From Patescibacteria group bacterium (GTDB lineage Bacteria; Patescibacteriota; Minisyncoccia; Phycocordibacterales; Phycocordibacteraceae), in NCBI GenBank assembly GCA_040390125.1, contig JAZJYZ010000001.1, positions 307,026 to 371,025 on the forward strand: a stretch of DNA of 64,000 nucleotides. The letters run 5' to 3'. Shown here piece after piece: positions 2,481 to 57,375 of the stretch (position 1 is its first letter; each line of letters starts with the position of its first letter). Made by a program: the position numbers and the translations under genes. Below the pieces are notes generated by a model, which was given only the letters and a program-made list of their open reading frames with translations, did not search any database and had not been told where the DNA came from.

Positions 2481-2565
2481 GGAGGCGTCGGATAGCGGTT
2501 TATTCCACCACCTTGGAAAGGTGGCGTACCGAAAGGTACCGAGAGTTCGAATCTCTCCGCCTCCG
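2481..2565 (+). tRNA. tRNA-Ser (anticodon GGA), class II, no encoded CCA
   Basis: Acceptor GGAGGCG/CGCCTCC. Anticodon stem CCACC/GGTGG with loop TTGGAAA. Long variable arm GTACC-GAAA-GGTAC. T-arm GAGAG-TTCGAAT-CTCTC. Discriminator G. Confidence 0.9.
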
Positions 2566-2569
2566 CAAA

Positions 2570-2743
2570 ATAATGAGCCAAATGTGTGGACATTGGGCAA
2601 TTATATTTTTGCGAGAAGGCGGAGAGATTCGAATGGGAGTGCCGCAGTTTCCGCCGAGCACGGCGGACGGCACGAGCGTGGTCAGGCGGAGAGAGGAGCT
2701 GGCGACGAACGAGCGCTTGACCGAATCTCTCCGCCTCCGCAAA
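2570..2743 (+). mobile_element. tRNA-Ser-associated miniature element: ~155-bp insert bounded by a 21-nt direct repeat of the tRNA 3' end (2549-2569 and 2723-2743), with an inverted T-arm/acceptor copy at 2617-2631
   Basis: Exact 21-nt direct repeat gaatctctccgcctccgcaaa. The inverted copy 2617-2631 forms a perfect 15-bp helix with 2722-2736. An internal hairpin GTGCCG-(CAGTTT)-CCGCCG-AGCA-CGGCGG-A-CGGCAC is present. The same architecture recurs at four other tRNAs in this window. Confidence 0.45.
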
Positions 2744-2745
2744 GT

Positions 2746-2775
2746 AAAAACCGCCCTGCATGCAGGGCGGTTTTT
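2746..2775. terminator. Bidirectional rho-independent terminator (AAAAACCGCCCTGCA/TGCAGGGCGGTTTTT)
   Basis: A perfect GC-rich 13-bp stem flanked by an A-run and a T-run. It sits between the plus-strand tRNA-Ser locus and a minus-strand small ORF. Confidence 0.75.
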
Positions 2776-2794
2776 ACTTAAGGCACCGAGGGAG

Positions 2795-9797: not shown

Positions 9798-12128
9798 ATG
9801 CAGGATTCTACGAACCATGTCAGTCACACTCCTTCAATACTTGGCAGACTTTCAGGATACATTGTCACCGCTCTTGTGTTGTTATTGCCGATTTTCTTCA
9901 TTCCTAATGCTGCATTTCCGTTTCAGTTCTCGAAAGTCGCACTTGCGCTAGCAGTGGTTGTTGTACTCTGGTTCCTTTTTTCGATACAAACACTTCGAAA
10001 AGGTGTTTTGTCGTTTACGTGGGTCCACTTCATACTGGCACTTTTAATTTTACCGGTTGCCTATTTTGTTGCATCCATTTTTTCTCCCGTTCCGACAGTC
10101 TCTTTCTTTGGCTATCAACTTGATCAGGATACGTTTGGCTTCATGGCTCTTGCCAGCGCTCTTTCAATTGCAACAGTGCTTGCAGTCAGATCAGAAAAAC
10201 AAATTTTTTCGGCATTGTTTGGATTCTTAATTGCAGGATGGGCGGTCTTAGTATTTCAGTCGATTCAGCTCTTTTTCGGAGTTCCTTTATTGCCAGGTTT
10301 GTTTACCTCTTCAGCTGTTAATACCGTTGGTACGTGGAGTGATTTTGCGCTTTTCATAGCGCTTCTCTCATCACTCATTTTGCTCGCACTAGAGGCGTTG
10401 GTACTTTCGGTGCCTGCGCTTATCGTACTTTCAGTTACGCTCGCTCTGTCTTTGTTTGTGCTTGCGATTGCCAACTTTTCTCTCGCTTGGTATCTCCTTG
10501 GTGGTGTGGCGTTCGTGATGCTTCTGCTTACGTTTACACGTAATCGCAGTACGGCATCCGGTAGCACGCTCCGTGCCAGTGGTGTTGCAGCGTGTCTTAC
10601 TCTCGCAGTCGCTGTGTTTTTTGTGTTCTTCGGTTCAGGATTGAGTACGGCTCTCCAAGGCAATTTCAAGGTAGATTCTTTGGAAGTACGACCATCAGTA
10701 CAAGGGACACTCGGTGTTCTGGAACACGTGTATGAGAAGAATGCATTTTTAGGTTCCGGACCAAATACGTTTGCGCAGTCTTGGCTTGTTGCCCGTCAGC
10801 CAGCAATTGTAGCGACGCAGTTTTGGAATGTTGAATTTAACTCAGGATTCGGAGCTATTCCAACTGCGCTGATTACCGGAGGTATTCTTGTGGGTCTTGC
10901 GTGGTTGGTGTTTATCTGCTGGTTTTTGTACACAGCCACTCGAGCACTGCTTACGGTACCTGCTGGGGAAGATAGGTCCTATTTCCTGATAGCCGCAACC
11001 TCTCTTGCTTCAACATTCCTGATCATTGCTCATATATTTTATGTGCCAAGCCAAGGTCTCAGCTTGCTCTTATTCCTCTTCATAGGTCTCTTCGTTGCAT
11101 CTTTGAAAGGAAGTGCGCTTGCTCGTCCAGTACATGTTGTATTTTCGCAGAGTCCACGTCTCGGATTTCTCTCGGTTTTGGTGGTTGCAGTGACGTTGGT
11201 GTTCTCTCTGGTAGCTGCATACGGCACTGGCGCAGTGTACGCAAGTGTTCTACAAGAAGGGCAGACAATTGCTCGCTCGAACGCAGGTGACATCGATGGT
11301 GCGATAGCTTCGGCAGTTTCCGCAGTAACTCTTTCTCCTCAAGATCGTTATTATCGTATGCTTACTTCACTTGCCCTCGCTAAGTTAAATGCACTAGTAG
11401 AGAAGGGTGGCTCTGATAAGGCAACGCAAGATGCGTTCCAGGCAGGCTTGTCGGATGCGGTTACTGCCAGCACTGCAGCCGTGAATGCAAATCCGCTGAG
11501 TTTTTCTAACTGGATGTCACGAGCATCTGTGTATGAGGCAGTCGTTCCGCTTGGTATTGATGGCGCAGAGGATAAGGCGATAGAAGCTCTTGAGGAGGCA
11601 CGGAAACGCAACCCAGGAGGTCCCGAAGTTGATTATCACCTCGCAAGCTTGAAGGCTTTCAAGAAGGACACCGCAGGTGCACGGACCTTTGCGCTTGCAG
11701 CAGTTGCAAAGAAGGCCGATTACACCCCAGCAATTCTGTTGTTGGCACAGCTTTCGCTCAATGAAGGAAAGATTGAAGATGCTATTGCTTCAGTCAAGGC
11801 GGCGATTGTATTTACTCCTCAGGATTCTTCTTTGCTCTATCAACTTGGGCTTTTACAGCTCGAAGCAAAACACTATGAAGATGCCGCCTCCTCGTTTATG
11901 TCTGCGCTCGCCATTACCCCAGACTTTGCGAACGCAACGTTTTTCTTAGGGCAAGCTGATGTGCTCTTGGGTAAAACTGACGCGGCGCTCACTCTATTCA
12001 AAGGCTTGCAAGAAAAGAATCCCGATAACGCACCTCTGCGTCAGGTCATAGATGCACTCGAGAAAGGTGAGAATCCTTTTGAGGGCGGGACCGTTACACC
12101 AGCTGAACAAACTCCAGCCAGCACATAA
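9798..12128 (+). CDS. Polytopic membrane protein, O-antigen-ligase/Wzy_C-like, with C-terminal TPR repeats
   Basis: 776 aa. There are ~10 N-terminal TM helices, and the C-terminal ~250 aa are TPR-like (ALAITPDFANATFFLGQADVLLGK...). This architecture is common in CPR genomes. Confidence 0.5.
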   Translation: MQDSTNHVSHTPSILGRLSGYIVTALVLLLPIFFIPNAAFPFQFSKVALALAVVVVLWFLFSIQTLRKGVLSFTWVHFILALLILPVAYFVASIFSPVPTVSFFGYQLDQDTFGFMALASALSIATVLAVRSEKQIFSALFGFLIAGWAVLVFQSIQLFFGVPLLPGLFTSSAVNTVGTWSDFALFIALLSSLILLALEALVLSVPALIVLSVTLALSLFVLAIANFSLAWYLLGGVAFVMLLLTFTRNRSTASGSTLRASGVAACLTLAVAVFFVFFGSGLSTALQGNFKVDSLEVRPSVQGTLGVLEHVYEKNAFLGSGPNTFAQSWLVARQPAIVATQFWNVEFNSGFGAIPTALITGGILVGLAWLVFICWFLYTATRALLTVPAGEDRSYFLIAATSLASTFLIIAHIFYVPSQGLSLLLFLFIGLFVASLKGSALARPVHVVFSQSPRLGFLSVLVVAVTLVFSLVAAYGTGAVYASVLQEGQTIARSNAGDIDGAIASAVSAVTLSPQDRYYRMLTSLALAKLNALVEKGGSDKATQDAFQAGLSDAVTASTAAVNANPLSFSNWMSRASVYEAVVPLGIDGAEDKAIEALEEARKRNPGGPEVDYHLASLKAFKKDTAGARTFALAAVAKKADYTPAILLLAQLSLNEGKIEDAIASVKAAIVFTPQDSSLLYQLGLLQLEAKHYEDAASSFMSALAITPDFANATFFLGQADVLLGKTDAALTLFKGLQEKNPDNAPLRQVIDALEKGENPFEGGTVTPAEQTPAST

Positions 12129-19358: not shown

Positions 19359-19380
19359 GTTTCGATTCTCCCATCCCGCA
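19359..19380 (+). repeat. Degenerate direct copy of the tRNA-Gly 3' end (gtttcgattctcccatcccgca vs ggttcgattcccggtacccgca), 6 nt downstream of the tRNA
   Basis: 17 of 22 positions are identical. It is followed by the cactgagc..cgaag motif that is shared with other tRNA-associated elements in this window. Confidence 0.4.
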
Positions 19381-19489
19381 CTGAGCAAAGCGAAGGGGGA
19401 TGAGAATGCTCCCTGCGGAGCATTCGTAGGGGACTGTACGCTGAGTCAGGTGAAAGGGGCTATGTGTAGTGGTGCTGTACACTTGAGGC

Positions 19490-22840: not shown

Positions 22841-22890
22841 TGTGTTTACACTGAGCGAGTCTGCGAGTCGAAGTGTGGTCACGAATATTT
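22841..22890. repeat. tRNA-associated motif gtgtttacactgagcgagtctgcgagtcgaagtgtggtcacgaat (family shared with 56090-56150, 56282-56320 and 19376-19400)
   Basis: A 35/37-nt match to 56282-56318, which directly abuts tRNA-Leu(TAG). Here it lies 128 bp from tRNA-Arg. Confidence 0.5.
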
Positions 22891-23017
22891 TTCCTGACAG
22901 AAAAATTTCTCGACCCCGCCTCGCAGTTTTTGCCTTTCGTTCCACTCAAACAAAAACATTGCTGTGGCAGGCACAAAAGCAGAAAATCTTCCGCAGGGAA
23001 GATATTTCTGTCTTTTG

Positions 23018-31726: not shown

Positions 31727-31986
31727 CTTGAGAGAGCTTCTTGCGAACGAGAGTGTGCAGTGAGCGAAACGCCTGCGCGTTTTGCGTAGGGATTCGAAGG
31801 GAATTTTTATGTTTTTTCAGCAGGAAAAACTAAAATTCCGGGGTCGAGGAGGGAGAATGCGACGGCACTCTCCCGAGGTGACCGAATCCTTCGCTCGTAT
31901 GAGGGATTCGAGTGAATCGTGCCGAGAGGCTTCAGGAAATTTTTCTGTTGTAAAATTATCCGTGACCGAATTCCTCATCGCACACC
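31727..31986 (+). mobile_element. tRNA-Val-associated element (~260 bp). It has an inverted T-arm copy (gggattcgaa), two degenerate direct copies of the tRNA 3' end (31878-31897 and 31966-31986), and the shared block aaaattatccgtgaccga
   Basis: The blocks gggattcgaagg, ggggtcgagga and aaaattatccgtgaccga are shared with the tRNA-Lys element at 56629-56814. The terminal copy accgaattcctcatcgcacac resembles the tRNA 3' end gttcgaatccctcaccgcgcac. Confidence 0.4.
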
Positions 31987-55775: not shown

Positions 55776-56033
55776 ATGGATGTTCTTTCTAACTTCATAG
55801 GTAAGATTGTCGAGCTCATACTCACGCCCATAATGGCGCTCCTTTTTGCCTTGGCGATGTTTTACTTCATCAACGGCTTGATTACATTCATCGCACAGGC
55901 AGACAATGCGGCAGAGAGAGCAAAAGGGACGAGGCACCTTTTCTGGGGGCTCATTGGTTTCTTTATAATGGTGTGTGTGATTGGAATTCTTACCGCTGTA
56001 ACTGGAACCTTCGGGGTGAGTTTACCGAAATGA
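55776..56033 (+). CDS. T4SS-pilin-like small membrane protein, paralog 5 (no signal peptide)
   Basis: 85 aa. Two hydrophobic helices flank QADNAAERAKGTRH. Followed by a terminator. Confidence 0.5.
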   Translation: MDVLSNFIGKIVELILTPIMALLFALAMFYFINGLITFIAQADNAAERAKGTRHLFWGLIGFFIMVCVIGILTAVTGTFGVSLPK

Positions 56034-56047
56034 GTTAACGAGAGAAA

Positions 56048-56073
56048 CAAAAACCCCGATTGATCGGGGTTTT
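56048..56073 (+). terminator. Rho-independent terminator (AAAAACCCCGAT-TGAT-CGGGGTTTTT)
   Basis: A GC stem with flanking A and T runs, immediately after the last gene of the pilin array. Confidence 0.8.
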
Positions 56074-56089
56074 TGTATTTGAAGTGTCT

Positions 56090-56313
56090 GCACTGAGTGA
56101 GTCATCGAATCGAAGTCTGGGCGAAGAAGGACTTGGTCACGAGTTACTAAGCATTTTGCTCCGTGTTTACTCCAAGTGAGTCTTTGGATTAAGTGCCCTT
56201 CGACTACTCTCACCCTTCGATTAAACTCAGGGTTTCGCTTCGCTCAGGGTACTTCGTCTCTCTTGCTCACATTTGCCCAGTGTTTACACTGAGCGAGCTT
56301 GCGAGTCGAAGTG
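56090..56313 (-). mobile_element. tRNA-Leu(TAG)-associated element. It holds a direct copy of the tRNA 3' end (tgggcgaagaaggacttgg, 56118-56136), the shared cgtgaccaa block, and two copies of the cactgagcgag...cgaagtg motif (56090-56117 and 56289-56313)
   Basis: In the tRNA orientation the layout is tRNA 3' end, then cacttcgactcgcaagctcgctcagtg, then a ~170-bp spacer, then cgtgacca, then agtccttcttcgccca, then gacttcgattcgatgactcactcagtg. This is the same architecture as the Ser, Lys and Val loci. Confidence 0.4.
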
Positions 56314-56395
56314 TGGGCGGAAGAGGACTTGAACCTCCACCCCTTGCGGGACTAGCTCCTAAGGCTAGCGCGTCTGCCAATTTCGCCATCCGCCC
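56314..56395 (-). tRNA. tRNA-Leu (anticodon TAG), class II
   Basis: Read on the reverse complement: acceptor GGGCGGA/TCCGCCC, anticodon stem CTAGC/GCTAG with loop CTTAGGA, long variable arm, T-arm GGAGG-TTCAAGT-CCTCT. Confidence 0.85.
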
Positions 56396-56553
56396 AATCC
56401 TCGAACAGTATCATTAGACGCAGTTCTATTCAAAGATTTACGCTTTTAAAATGTTCTTATTTCTGTTAGAGTTTCCGAATCCGCCCGTAAGCATAGCTTT
56501 CGGGCGCTTCATTCGAAGATAATGAAAATTAATTTTCATTATCCTTCTCATTC

Positions 56554-56626
56554 GCGCCCGTAGCTCAGTTGGTAGAGCGACTCCCTCTTAAGGAGACGGT
56601 CGTAGGTTCGAGCCCTACCGGGCGCA
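56554..56626 (+). tRNA. tRNA-Lys (anticodon CTT), no encoded CCA
   Basis: Acceptor GCGCCCG/CGGGCGC. D-arm GCTC-AGTTGGTA-GAGC. Anticodon stem ACTCC/GGAGA with loop CTCTTAA. T-arm GTAGG-TTCGAGC-CCTAC. Confidence 0.9.
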
Positions 56627-56628
56627 CA

Positions 56629-56814
56629 ATATAAAAACAGCACACAGGTGCTGTTTTTATATTGTGCGCCCGAGCAAGCGAATAGTTTCGCTTGCGTGTG
56701 GGACTCGAAAAGTGGAGTGTTACTTTCTGTTTCAGAAAGTCACGAGCTGGGGTCGAGGAAATTTACGAACGTAGGTGAGAAAATTATCCGTGACCGAGCC
56801 CTACCGGGCGCACA
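56629..56814 (+). mobile_element. tRNA-Lys-associated miniature element (166 bp), bounded by an exact 20-nt direct repeat of the tRNA 3' end (cgagccctaccgggcgcaca at 56609-56628 and 56795-56814)
   Basis: It contains a terminator hairpin (56634-56658). It contains an inverted T-arm copy (gggactcgaa). It contains the blocks ggggtcgagga and aaaattatccgtgaccga, which are shared with the tRNA-Val element. Confidence 0.45.
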
Positions 56815-56817
56815 TAT

Positions 56818-57375
56818 TTAAAACTCATACACATAGAGTTTATGTGGGTGTTTGCCAGTTCCCACAATTACCATCTCTATAGGTTCTTTTGTTTTGAAAG
56901 GGAAGTCGCACGAAACAACACGAGTTCCTTTTTTCAATTCCGCTTCGAACTTTGGTAACAGCTTCTGTACGACGTCAGGAAAGAGATACATGTAGATATG
57001 TGTCGCATTGTGGAGTGGCACACGTGAGAAATTTCTAAATAGAGTTTTTACGTTTTTGAGAGGTTTAAACCAGAAACGAATTTGGGTGAAGGTGTAGGGT
57101 AGTGGTGCTTTCTCAACGCCTGTCGCAAAAGCATCTGGGTACGCTGTGCCCATTGTTGCAATGACACGCCCATCTCCAGAGCCAAGATCATAGAATTGAT
57201 CGCCCGCTTTCATGGGGAGTAACCGTTTTACCTCATCAACTACATACTGAGGTATTGGTACGTACGGGACTCTCGTTGTTACGATTCCGTAGCTCATGAA
57301 GACTAAGAAGATGAAACAAATGAACCATATAAGAGTGAGCACTGCGTAGAGTGTCAGAATGAGAAACATAGTCAT
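56818..57375 (-). CDS. Class I SAM-dependent methyltransferase with N-terminal TM helix
   Basis: 185 aa. Contains YDLGSGDGRV (motif I) and an acidic motif II candidate. Confidence 0.55.
   Translation of the reverse strand: MTMFLILTLYAVLTLIWFICFIFLVFMSYGIVTTRVPYVPIPQYVVDEVKRLLPMKAGDQFYDLGSGDGRVIATMGTAYPDAFATGVEKAPLPYTFTQIRFWFKPLKNVKTLFRNFSRVPLHNATHIYMYLFPDVVQKLLPKFEAELKKGTRVVSCDFPFKTKEPIEMVIVGTGKHPHKLYVYEF

Follow-up and report, generated by a model that had tools for sequence, protein, structure and literature searches.

In the 64-kb window analyzed here (the whole stretch of Patescibacteria DNA under study), several tRNA genes are followed by a further copy of their own 3' end, which raises the question of what lies between gene and copy and how such an arrangement arises. 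A sequence-only reading of the window had proposed a new family of miniature elements that integrate into tRNA 3' ends and are mobilized in trans by a tyrosine integrase. The interpretation that we favor, with a probability of about one half, is that a Patescibacteria-wide family of small, non-coding, high-turnover insertion elements occupies tRNA and tmRNA 3' trailers and encodes a structured RNA.

Elements behind the tRNA genes of the window

ARAGORN and Rfam identify 11 tRNA genes in the window. A small non-coding element with a conserved RNA fold is present 3' of six or seven of them, and its parts include both an inverted and a direct copy of the 3' end of the host tRNA itself. In a test with 500 shuffles of the 300 nt downstream of each gene, the direct match is reached in 0-1 of 500 shuffles for tRNA-Ser(GGA), tRNA-Lys, tRNA-Val, tRNA-Leu(TAG) and tRNA-Gly, and in 85-500 of 500 for the remaining six. 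The former are the five loci, among 11 tRNAs, for which a 3'-end copy had been claimed, and all five are reproduced. The original list of elements stands for these loci but had missed a sixth, behind tRNA-Arg(CCT). This element was first exposed by pattern searches with shared internal blocks. The features are listed below, where R1 is the covariance model built in this work.

2481..2566, + strand: host gene tRNA-Ser(GGA) (ARAGORN; Rfam tRNA, 51.5 bits)
2567..2747, + strand: Ser element, a GC-rich divergent member (repeats; R1 17.6 bits, E 0.002; fold)
2742..2779, + strand: perfect 19-bp palindrome with flanking A and T runs, directly after the Ser distal copy
19361..19440, + strand: Gly remnant, no intact core (R1 13.9 bits, E 0.03)
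22868..23016, - strand: Arg element behind tRNA-Arg(CCT) (R1 66.5 bits, E 2e-19)
31728..31896, + strand: Val element 1 (R1 40.6 bits; repeats)
31899..31985, + strand: Val element 2, in tandem with Val element 1 (R1 28.8 bits; repeats)
56083..56312, - strand: Leu(TAG) element, highly divergent (repeats; undetected by R1)
56628..56824, + strand: Lys element, the best copy (repeats; fold; R1 77.4 bits, E 5e-23)

At the tRNA-Ser(GGA) locus, a trailer hairpin is followed by an inverted copy (2605-2633; 29 nt, 83% complementary), the core (R1 match at 2620-2733) and a direct copy that starts from C56 (2722-2747). The direct repeat (2548-2573 and 2722-2747, spacing 174), described earlier as 21 nt, is exact over 22 nt and 96% identical over 26 nt. 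The inverted T-arm copy and the perfect 15-bp helix that had been reported for this locus are also recovered, the helix pairing 2617-2631 with 2722-2736. The palindrome that follows is probably the native terminator of the tRNA-Ser unit.

The Lys element begins with a perfect 25-nt palindrome (56619-56643 and 56648-56672) that starts within the acceptor 3' strand and has a terminator-like apex, followed by an inserted hairpin, the T-arm complement, the core (56696-56806) and the direct copy, which starts from C56. Its direct repeat (56609-56638 and 56795-56824, spacing 186) is exact over 20 nt, precisely as first noted, and extends to 30 nt at 87%. In the Arg element, a terminator-like hairpin likewise begins in the acceptor 3' strand, and a canonical core comes next (R1 match at 22868-22983, minus strand). 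The junction of this element is GTGAC followed by CAC (the 'CAC' class described below), and the downstream flank repeats only 'CAC' and not the T arm.

Behind tRNA-Val, where degenerate copies had been reported, three copies are found with spacings of 174 and 84. In Val element 1, a hairpin splits the inverted copy, the core is complete (31785-31894), and the direct copy that follows GTGAC has decayed to 10 identical positions out of 19. In Val element 2, the T arm has a perfect 12-nt inverted copy (31900-31911), the core is missing P1, and 16 of the 19 positions of the direct copy are identical. The Leu(TAG) element, which ends in CTCGTGAC followed by CAAGTCC, is too divergent for R1. The repeat claimed at this locus is present at a spacing of 196, but its length is not 19 nt: it spans 53 nt at 77% identity, of which 34 nt belong to the trailer and the rest to the tRNA 3' end. 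At the Gly locus, only a decayed remnant is left, and, as had been observed, a degenerate copy of the tRNA-Gly 3' end lies 6 nt after the gene. This copy, 21 nt in length, is 76% identical to the adjoining gene and fully identical to the tRNA-Gly(TCC) end in locus L193, and it is followed by GGGGGATGAGAA and then by a hairpin with a CUGC loop. The repeats commonly extend 4-35 nt past the tRNA end into the trailer. The internal blocks said to be shared between loci are indeed overrepresented in pattern searches: GGGGTCGAGGA has 5 matches versus 0.5 expected, and AAAATTATCCGTGACCGA has 2 versus 0.04 expected.

The open reading frames of the window encode housekeeping proteins (gyrA, a class I tRNA synthetase, ftsZ, ftsA, IF-2, lepA, murJ and tsaD). 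Among the scanned ORFs of at least 108 aa in the 64-kb window, no integrase, transposase, reverse transcriptase or TnpB is found. For the 185-aa ORF adjoining tRNA-Lys, the exact protein is not on record.

Common anatomy and junction

The elements are approximately 110-230 bp long and non-coding, and on the tRNA strand they share one order: the tRNA gene, a spacer or hairpin, the inverted copy A', a conserved core of approximately 85-110 nt and the direct copy A. With A as the tRNA 3' end and B as the trailer, the layout is (A, B) - loop - (B'A') - core - (A, often with B). The spacer is frequently a long hairpin begun in the acceptor 3' strand, the apex of which can resemble a bidirectional terminator. 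In many copies, A' is split by an extra hairpin exactly between the acceptor and T-stem complements. The loop of this hairpin is often AACUGCUU, a motif that occurs at most 150 nt upstream of 42 regex-defined cores versus approximately 6 expected.

The direct copy A begins at the T-loop base C56, immediately after ...YCGUGAC. Among the matches listed, 56 of the 60 scored loci have C56 as the left boundary of the repeat, which has a median length of 19 nt (range 8-39). In a second junction class, at C72/A73, only C72-A73-C and the trailer are repeated (the 'CAC' or 'GAC' class). The T-loop-class junction in the tRNA is always preceded by GTT (G53-T55).

These features resemble those of a guide RNA. 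Some CRISPR-associated transposons home to tRNA genes, and PAM or TAM flanks mark the targets of such systems. In a TnpB/Cas12-type reading, the core would be the scaffold, the 19-22-nt 3' copy would be a guide to the tRNA gene and GTT would be the PAM/TAM-like flank. A scaffold followed by a 3' target match of approximately 16-24 nt is present, the boundary between the two is razor-sharp directly after the P2 hairpin, the median match is of guide-like length, and GTT precedes every T-loop-class site. However, the 'CAC'/'GAC' class has no GTT flank, the match often runs far into the trailer (up to 53 nt), and no nuclease gene is present in the window or adjoining the elements in approximately 200 loci. 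We consider this reading very improbable, and the fold and the decay of the distal copies, described below, count further against it.

Fold and covariation of the core

When 76 cores are aligned, a three-way junction emerges. In helix P0, A' pairs with A; covariation is seen at each of the 11 pairs counted, and the paired fraction of cells is 67-74%. P0 is followed by a GAAAG-type linker, P1, GG and P2. P1 has an internal loop, C[GGA]G / C[GA]G, and is paired in 97-99% of cells, with one pair, for example, occurring as GC 29, CG 27 and AU 14 times. P2 has the form GGUC[GA]G... / ...C[GU]GACC, in which the last base is C56 of the copied tRNA end; it is paired in 99% of cells and has 8 covarying pairs. 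The supposed guide is thus not single-stranded but pairs with the inverted copy to form P0 in the conserved fold.

Because the 76 cores had been chosen by sequence pattern, R1 was applied to independently collected loci. In the resulting set of 55 model-aligned matches (E <=1e-4, the window's own copies included), 31 of 32 pairs change on both sides, in an alignment that is model-fitted and therefore leans towards structure, and 86% of cells pair versus approximately 40% when the partners are slid by 1-3 columns. G.U exceeds A.C in P1+P2 by 26:5 and 82:9. Such an excess is expected for an RNA read on the tRNA strand; the opposite strand would show the reverse. This base-pair bias points to a core that encodes an RNA read on the tRNA strand.

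The distal 'direct repeat' doubles as the 3' strand of the closing helix of the RNA fold. It had been considered at the outset that the repeats might be parts of one RNA rather than the scars of insertion; this alternative is half borne out, in that the distal repeat does belong to the closing helix.

Rfam 15 at gathering thresholds yields only tRNA matches in the window, and at E up to 10 it yields nothing relevant, and no intron match, in 56000-56900. Other known folds were also considered and rejected. A degenerate second tRNA in tandem, with the core in its T loop, is incompatible with a segment that complements the 3' strand even at a G.U pair (L240 Leu-TAA) and that runs on into the trailer complement. 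Hammerhead, kink-turn and C/D-box readings, compared by eye, misfit in linker lengths and conserved bases.

Distribution across Patescibacteria

A two-block motif scan of 185,579 species genomes, one genome per species, yields at least 119 loci, of which at least 87 have a full Patescibacteria-type core; the other matches listed are chance hits in GC-rich coding DNA. Cores occur in Saccharibacteria, Nomura-, Morani-, Taylor-, Kaiser-, Wolfe-, Vogel- and Yanofskybacteria and in Paceibacterota. A co-oriented tRNA or tmRNA gene lies within 450 nt upstream in 60 of the 87 Patescibacteria-type loci listed, and most of the others are at the edge of the fetched stretch. In approximately 30 loci, the bases after GTGAC repeat the host gene's own 3' end with 20-24 of 24 positions identical. 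In all, the hosts of this one core family comprise at least 19 tRNA species and tmRNA.

An independent set of 80 metagenome loci, chosen only for encoding a relative of the window's IF-2, was searched with R1. This search gives 66 matches at E <=0.01, of which 63 lie within 330 nt downstream of a co-oriented tRNA gene, and approximately one quarter of the tRNA genes in these loci are occupied by an element. The search of metagenomes with a covariance model that had been suggested is thereby realized, and the expectation of a single homologous family with further copies is confirmed by both collections. The stricter motif pattern has no match in 2.9 million viral contigs, and no circular or free form of the element is seen. 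Matches of viral contigs to the loose pattern GGGGTCGAG...CGTGACC are chance matches in GC-rich ORFs.

A non-mobile RNA of benefit to the host would also display, as observed here, a covarying core that is conserved deeply among the phyla of Patescibacteria and a strict co-orientation with the tRNA (63/66). Such an RNA could be a tRNA-cotranscribed module for processing or termination, a mimic of the acceptor and T arm for RNase P, RNase Z or the CCA-adding enzyme, or a decoy or sponge, with the tRNA-derived arms supplying tRNA-like ends. Additionally, at the Ser and Leu(TAG) loci, a strong terminator is present only after the distal copy, and the extra hairpin stands exactly at the boundary of acceptor and T stem, as in tRNA topology. 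On the other hand, the closing helix extends past the discriminator into the trailer, so that no clean acceptor-stem mimic is formed, and at several loci a terminator-like hairpin separates the tRNA from the core. A host function of this kind is judged unlikely, also in view of the turnover described below.

Turnover at the tRNA loci

Gene order around IF-2 is conserved (IF-2, tRNA-Cys, tRNA-Leu(TAA), tRNA-Lys, tRNA-Leu(TAG)), and the occupancy of these genes varies. The Cys locus is filled in L240, L244 and L246 and empty in the window, L241, L242, L243, L248 and L254. The Leu(TAA) locus is filled in L240 (twice), L248 and L254 and empty in the window, L241, L242, L244 and L246. Empty sites in syntenic relatives, which had been named as a test of the insertion model, therefore exist for both the Cys and the Leu(TAA) loci. 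Such patchiness at the same tRNA among close relatives does not favor a non-mobile host RNA, nor do the tandem duplicates (L121, L149, L169, L198, L240 and the Val locus of the window), which are common, and the frequent decay, which includes the loss of P1 in Val element 2, the Gly remnant, the Leu(TAG) element that the model does not recognize and the eroded distal copies.

The cleanest pair of filled and empty sites is provided by L240 and L241, which are 91-96% identical over approximately 20 kb, with differences that cluster at tRNA loci. At Leu(TAA) in L241 and in the window, the tRNA is followed directly by the conserved flank. In L240, approximately 390 bp, corresponding to two elements, lie between T55 and a fossil tRNA end, and this fossil end and its flank match the tRNA end and flank at the empty site of L241. 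However, the whole tRNA and an upstream gene also differ between L240 and L241 at Leu-TAA, and the difference could be explained by block replacement, i.e., homologous recombination between tRNA genes, with no site-specific insertion. For this reason, our confidence in true site-specific mobility is only moderate.

The distal copies also bear a record of decay. The proximal and distal copies are identical in 29 of 46 T-loop-class loci; where they differ, A' is nearer to the tRNA copy in 11 loci and nearer to the distal copy in 1, with 5 ties. Erosion of the distal copy is mostly in the acceptor part. Decay from the 3' side, together with the L240 copy, which is an ancestral displaced gene end joined to its native flank, speaks against a guide function of this segment. 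Within L240, a P2 module of approximately 75 nt is 96% identical between the Cys and Lys elements, with P0 and P1 differing, which indicates that elements at different tRNAs exchange modules by transfer or conversion. Identity is 61% between copies on the same contig and 58% between copies on different contigs; the former are no closer, and there is thus no sign of a recent burst.

Possible insertion by a recombinase

A tyrosine recombinase encoded elsewhere, possibly a housekeeping Xer protein, might recombine a small circle that carries a tRNA 3'-end copy with the T loop or 3' end, which would make the elements CIME-like miniature integrase-dependent elements. Their fold would then be that of a single-stranded DNA substrate. 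Folded single-stranded DNA serves as a recombination substrate in integron attC sites and the CTX phage attP. Consistent with such insertion are the regenerated gene and displaced 3' fragment, the clear-cut boundary at C56 or at the end of the acceptor, and the fact that tmRNA is used as well. A Campbell-type insertion of an A-B-loop-B'-A'-core circle would give exactly the observed order, and the distal copy is contiguous with the native flank (L240 compared with the empty L241). A regenerated gene with a displaced 3' fragment is the signature by which integrase-borne islands are mapped (Islander; PMC4383910).

The evidence nevertheless makes this alternative doubtful. No integrase is encoded in the window, and none stands consistently beside the elements in approximately 200 loci, where housekeeping genes and additional tRNAs are the neighbors. 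Because a single core family is associated with at least 19 tRNA species, attP cannot have a fixed identity. The bias of G.U over A.C, like the unpaired nucleotides that are conserved, is more in keeping with RNA than with DNA. The tyrosine-integrase model of the sequence-only reading is thus supported by the single homologous family with many copies, by the filled and empty loci and by a duplicated segment whose left boundary is sharp, whether it falls within the T loop or at the end of the acceptor, but it is at odds with the missing integrase in the window, the at least 19 tRNA species that each supply their own arms, and the RNA-type conserved interior.

Two candidate enzymes were considered and set aside. 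The sole Xer recombinase beside an element, in L158, looks like an intein-bearing housekeeping copy. The gene for an HNH endonuclease between tRNA-Cys and tRNA-Leu(TAA) is tightly linked to tRNA-Leu(TAA) phylum-wide, but not to the elements.

Proposed mechanism and significance

In the favored interpretation, that of a high-turnover insertion element encoding a structured RNA, the element would enter a tRNA or tmRNA gene at T-loop position 55/56 or, in the second class, at C72/A73. Insertion would leave a complete gene proximally and a copy of the displaced 3' terminus distally, joined to the old flank and terminator. This same core follows genes for at least 19 tRNA species, and its direct and inverted arms invariably carry the sequence of the gene next to them. 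This implies that the arms are made from the target, either during insertion or later; matching arms at so many hosts are not explained by a fixed attachment site. Copying may occur by fold-back synthesis, template-switch synthesis or quasipalindrome correction. Either the Campbell-type insertion of the circle or fold-back synthesis on the displaced 3' fragment would reproduce the layout. The element would then be transcribed together with the tRNA, and selection would preserve the fold, most likely because the insertion or copying step requires it. A host recombinase, nuclease or polymerase, or the RNA itself, may be the catalyst.

Several observations weigh against this interpretation. The deep conservation of the core would fit a host function equally well, copies within a contig are no more alike than copies between contigs, and the L240/L241 pair at Leu-TAA fits block replacement. 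Additionally, neither the circular or free form nor a viral match was encountered in the searches described above.

A bolder and less probable proposal, which we offer tentatively, is a new class of mobile element in which the exposed T loop or 3' end of tRNA-type genes is the homing site of a three-way-junction RNA of approximately 100 nt or of its folded single strand. Its insertion would be independent of proteins or use host enzymes only, and its arms would be self-built from the target in both orientations, so that any tRNA or tmRNA gene could be colonized harmlessly. If true, no known self-targeting mobile element would be more compact, and the element would have a large part in shaping the tRNA loci of the streamlined Patescibacteria genomes.

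Patescibacteria have some of the smallest bacterial genomes, and despite this streamlining the element sits on approximately one quarter of the tRNA genes near IF-2 and on more than half of those in the window. Should the element be mobile, none of the models tested explains its target-derived arms, and a new chemistry of insertion, directed at the T loop that is conserved universally, might come to light. Should it instead be a host RNA, Patescibacteria, whose RNA biology has hardly been explored, would possess a tRNA-linked ncRNA that is present in multiple copies throughout the phylum. In either reading, the element accounts for 'orphan' tRNA 3' fragments in Patescibacteria genomes, which mislead tRNA annotation and island finders that use displaced tRNA ends as landmarks, and R1 is a covariance model ready for annotation. 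The suggestion that the family had not been described before stands, in that it has no Rfam match and no description of the element was found in the literature searched. Because the element lacks at least one defining feature of every family that could be tested, we regard it as an element of a new kind or, at the minimum, as a new family of RNAs whose genomic behavior is without precedent.

Comparison with known systems

Integrase-borne islands, including prophages, and CIMEs in tRNA and tmRNA genes are among the closest known systems. In these islands, as in the present elements, the target is kept intact by element-side sequence and a displaced 3'-end copy marks the far boundary (PMC4383910). 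The tmRNA gene is also targeted in both, and the breakpoint in the T loop or at the extreme 3' end is a canonical one. Integrases reportedly act in tRNA and tmRNA genes at the anticodon loop, the T loop or the extreme 3' end, a list attributed to Williams 2002. Unlike the islands, the element is 110-230 bp long and gene-less, with no integrase gene within it, in the window or nearby, and in place of a single attachment sequence and few targets it has at least 19 tRNA species and tmRNA as hosts. It also adds an inverted copy of the target end and an RNA-type fold, and it matches its own host across these tRNA species.

The elements resemble bacterial MITEs, Correia, REP/BIME and RUP sequences in that they are small, non-coding, multi-copy and patchy among strains, have inverted arms, sit beside terminators and, like many small repeats, would often be co-transcribed. 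The MITE-like terminal inverted repeat that had been proposed does not hold, however. The inverted arms are copies of the neighboring tRNA and hence locus-specific, not family-conserved ends; only the internal core, a three-way junction, is conserved, and the window contains no transposase. The duplication of 8-53 nt has a fixed left and a variable right edge in contrast to a short target-site duplication of fixed length, and the elements are confined to tRNA and tmRNA 3' ends.

Mobile self-splicing introns of tRNA and tmRNA genes, among them group I introns and the introns of the tmRNA T loop, are likewise structured RNAs in a loop of a tRNA-type gene, with an internal exon complement and, in many cases, no protein gene. 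Patescibacteria are rich in self-splicing tRNA introns, and those surveyed are group I introns at 35/36 in the anticodon loop (PMC13011429). The present element differs in having approximately 100 nt, no group I core (P3-P9) and no Rfam intron match even at E = 10. The gene is also uninterrupted, with the full tRNA 3' end preceding the element, and the site is 55/56 and not 35/36.

Finally, TnpB/Cas12 guides and type V-K CAST crRNAs share with the element a structured scaffold, a match of approximately 20 nt to the tRNA 3' end at the 3' side and a GTT-flanked target. Unlike these RNAs, the element has no effector and its match is paired within the fold. In CAST, the match is at the far end of a large transposon, whereas that of the element is 100-200 bp from the target, and its distal copy behaves not as a guide but as decaying displaced DNA.

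tRNA 3' ends and the flank of the Arg element

Among the 11 tRNA genes of the window, only tRNA-Cys encodes CCA; in eight of the others, A-C comes right after the acceptor stem ("CAC"). This same C72-A73-C is the exact starting point of the element's second junction class.

A block of approximately 35 nt, reading CACTGAGCGAG..TGCGAGTCGAAGTG on the plus strand, is present in three copies in the window:

56279-56313, copy of the ~35-nt block
56083-56117, copy of the ~35-nt block
22849-22880, copy of the ~35-nt block

In this order, the copies are located in the tRNA-Leu(TAG) trailer, in the distal repeat of the Leu(TAG) element and directly past the junction of the Arg element; the downstream flank of the Arg element therefore resembles the trailer of tRNA-Leu(TAG) and not that of tRNA-Arg.

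Rearrangements in two close relatives

A comparison of the closely related loci L240 and L241 reveals that tRNA-Cys (11824-11900 and 11815-11891, respectively) is 100% identical yet inverted, with dissimilar immediate flanks; elsewhere, the two loci are 91-96% identical. This inversion is a local rearrangement at the tRNA locus. A second scaffold end, CTCGTGAC followed by CACAAAA, is observed just beyond the Lys element's decayed distal copy (L240 13690-13720, L241 13750-13790). It resembles the final 8 nt of an earlier "CAC"-class element that has been almost entirely deleted, and suggests nested insertion and deletion.

Genes and tRNA sequences near the elements

The tRNA-Leu(UAA) gene of the window adjoins an endonuclease gene that is also present in the compared loci L321, L331, L333 and L334:

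57477-57959 (-), HNH endonuclease ORF, 160 aa

In all five contexts examined, the two genes are co-oriented, and the 5' end of the tRNA lies 0-6 nt past the end of the ORF or is overlapped by it; the remaining neighbours of the pair vary. Homologues of the HNH protein number more than 3,000; the best among the matches listed share 54-69% identity with it and are named after Patescibacteria lineages. No element is found at the tRNA-Leu(UAA) copies adjoining the ORF in these five loci, and the ORF is missing from L240, where two elements occupy the tRNA-Leu(UAA) site.

In another locus, L158, a Xer gene is immediately followed by a hairpin with a AACUGCUU loop and then by an element that has no tRNA upstream of it:

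L158 3303-5570, Xer-type tyrosine recombinase, 755 aa

By eye, the translation appears to contain an intein.

In the oriented locus L232, a tRNA 3' half (..GGTCGCAGGTTCGAATCCTGCTCGCGGAGCA) is located approximately 250 nt upstream of the element, and ARAGORN calls no whole tRNA gene there. This half may come from a tRNA-Asn gene interrupted by an intron, of the type that PMC13011429 describes.
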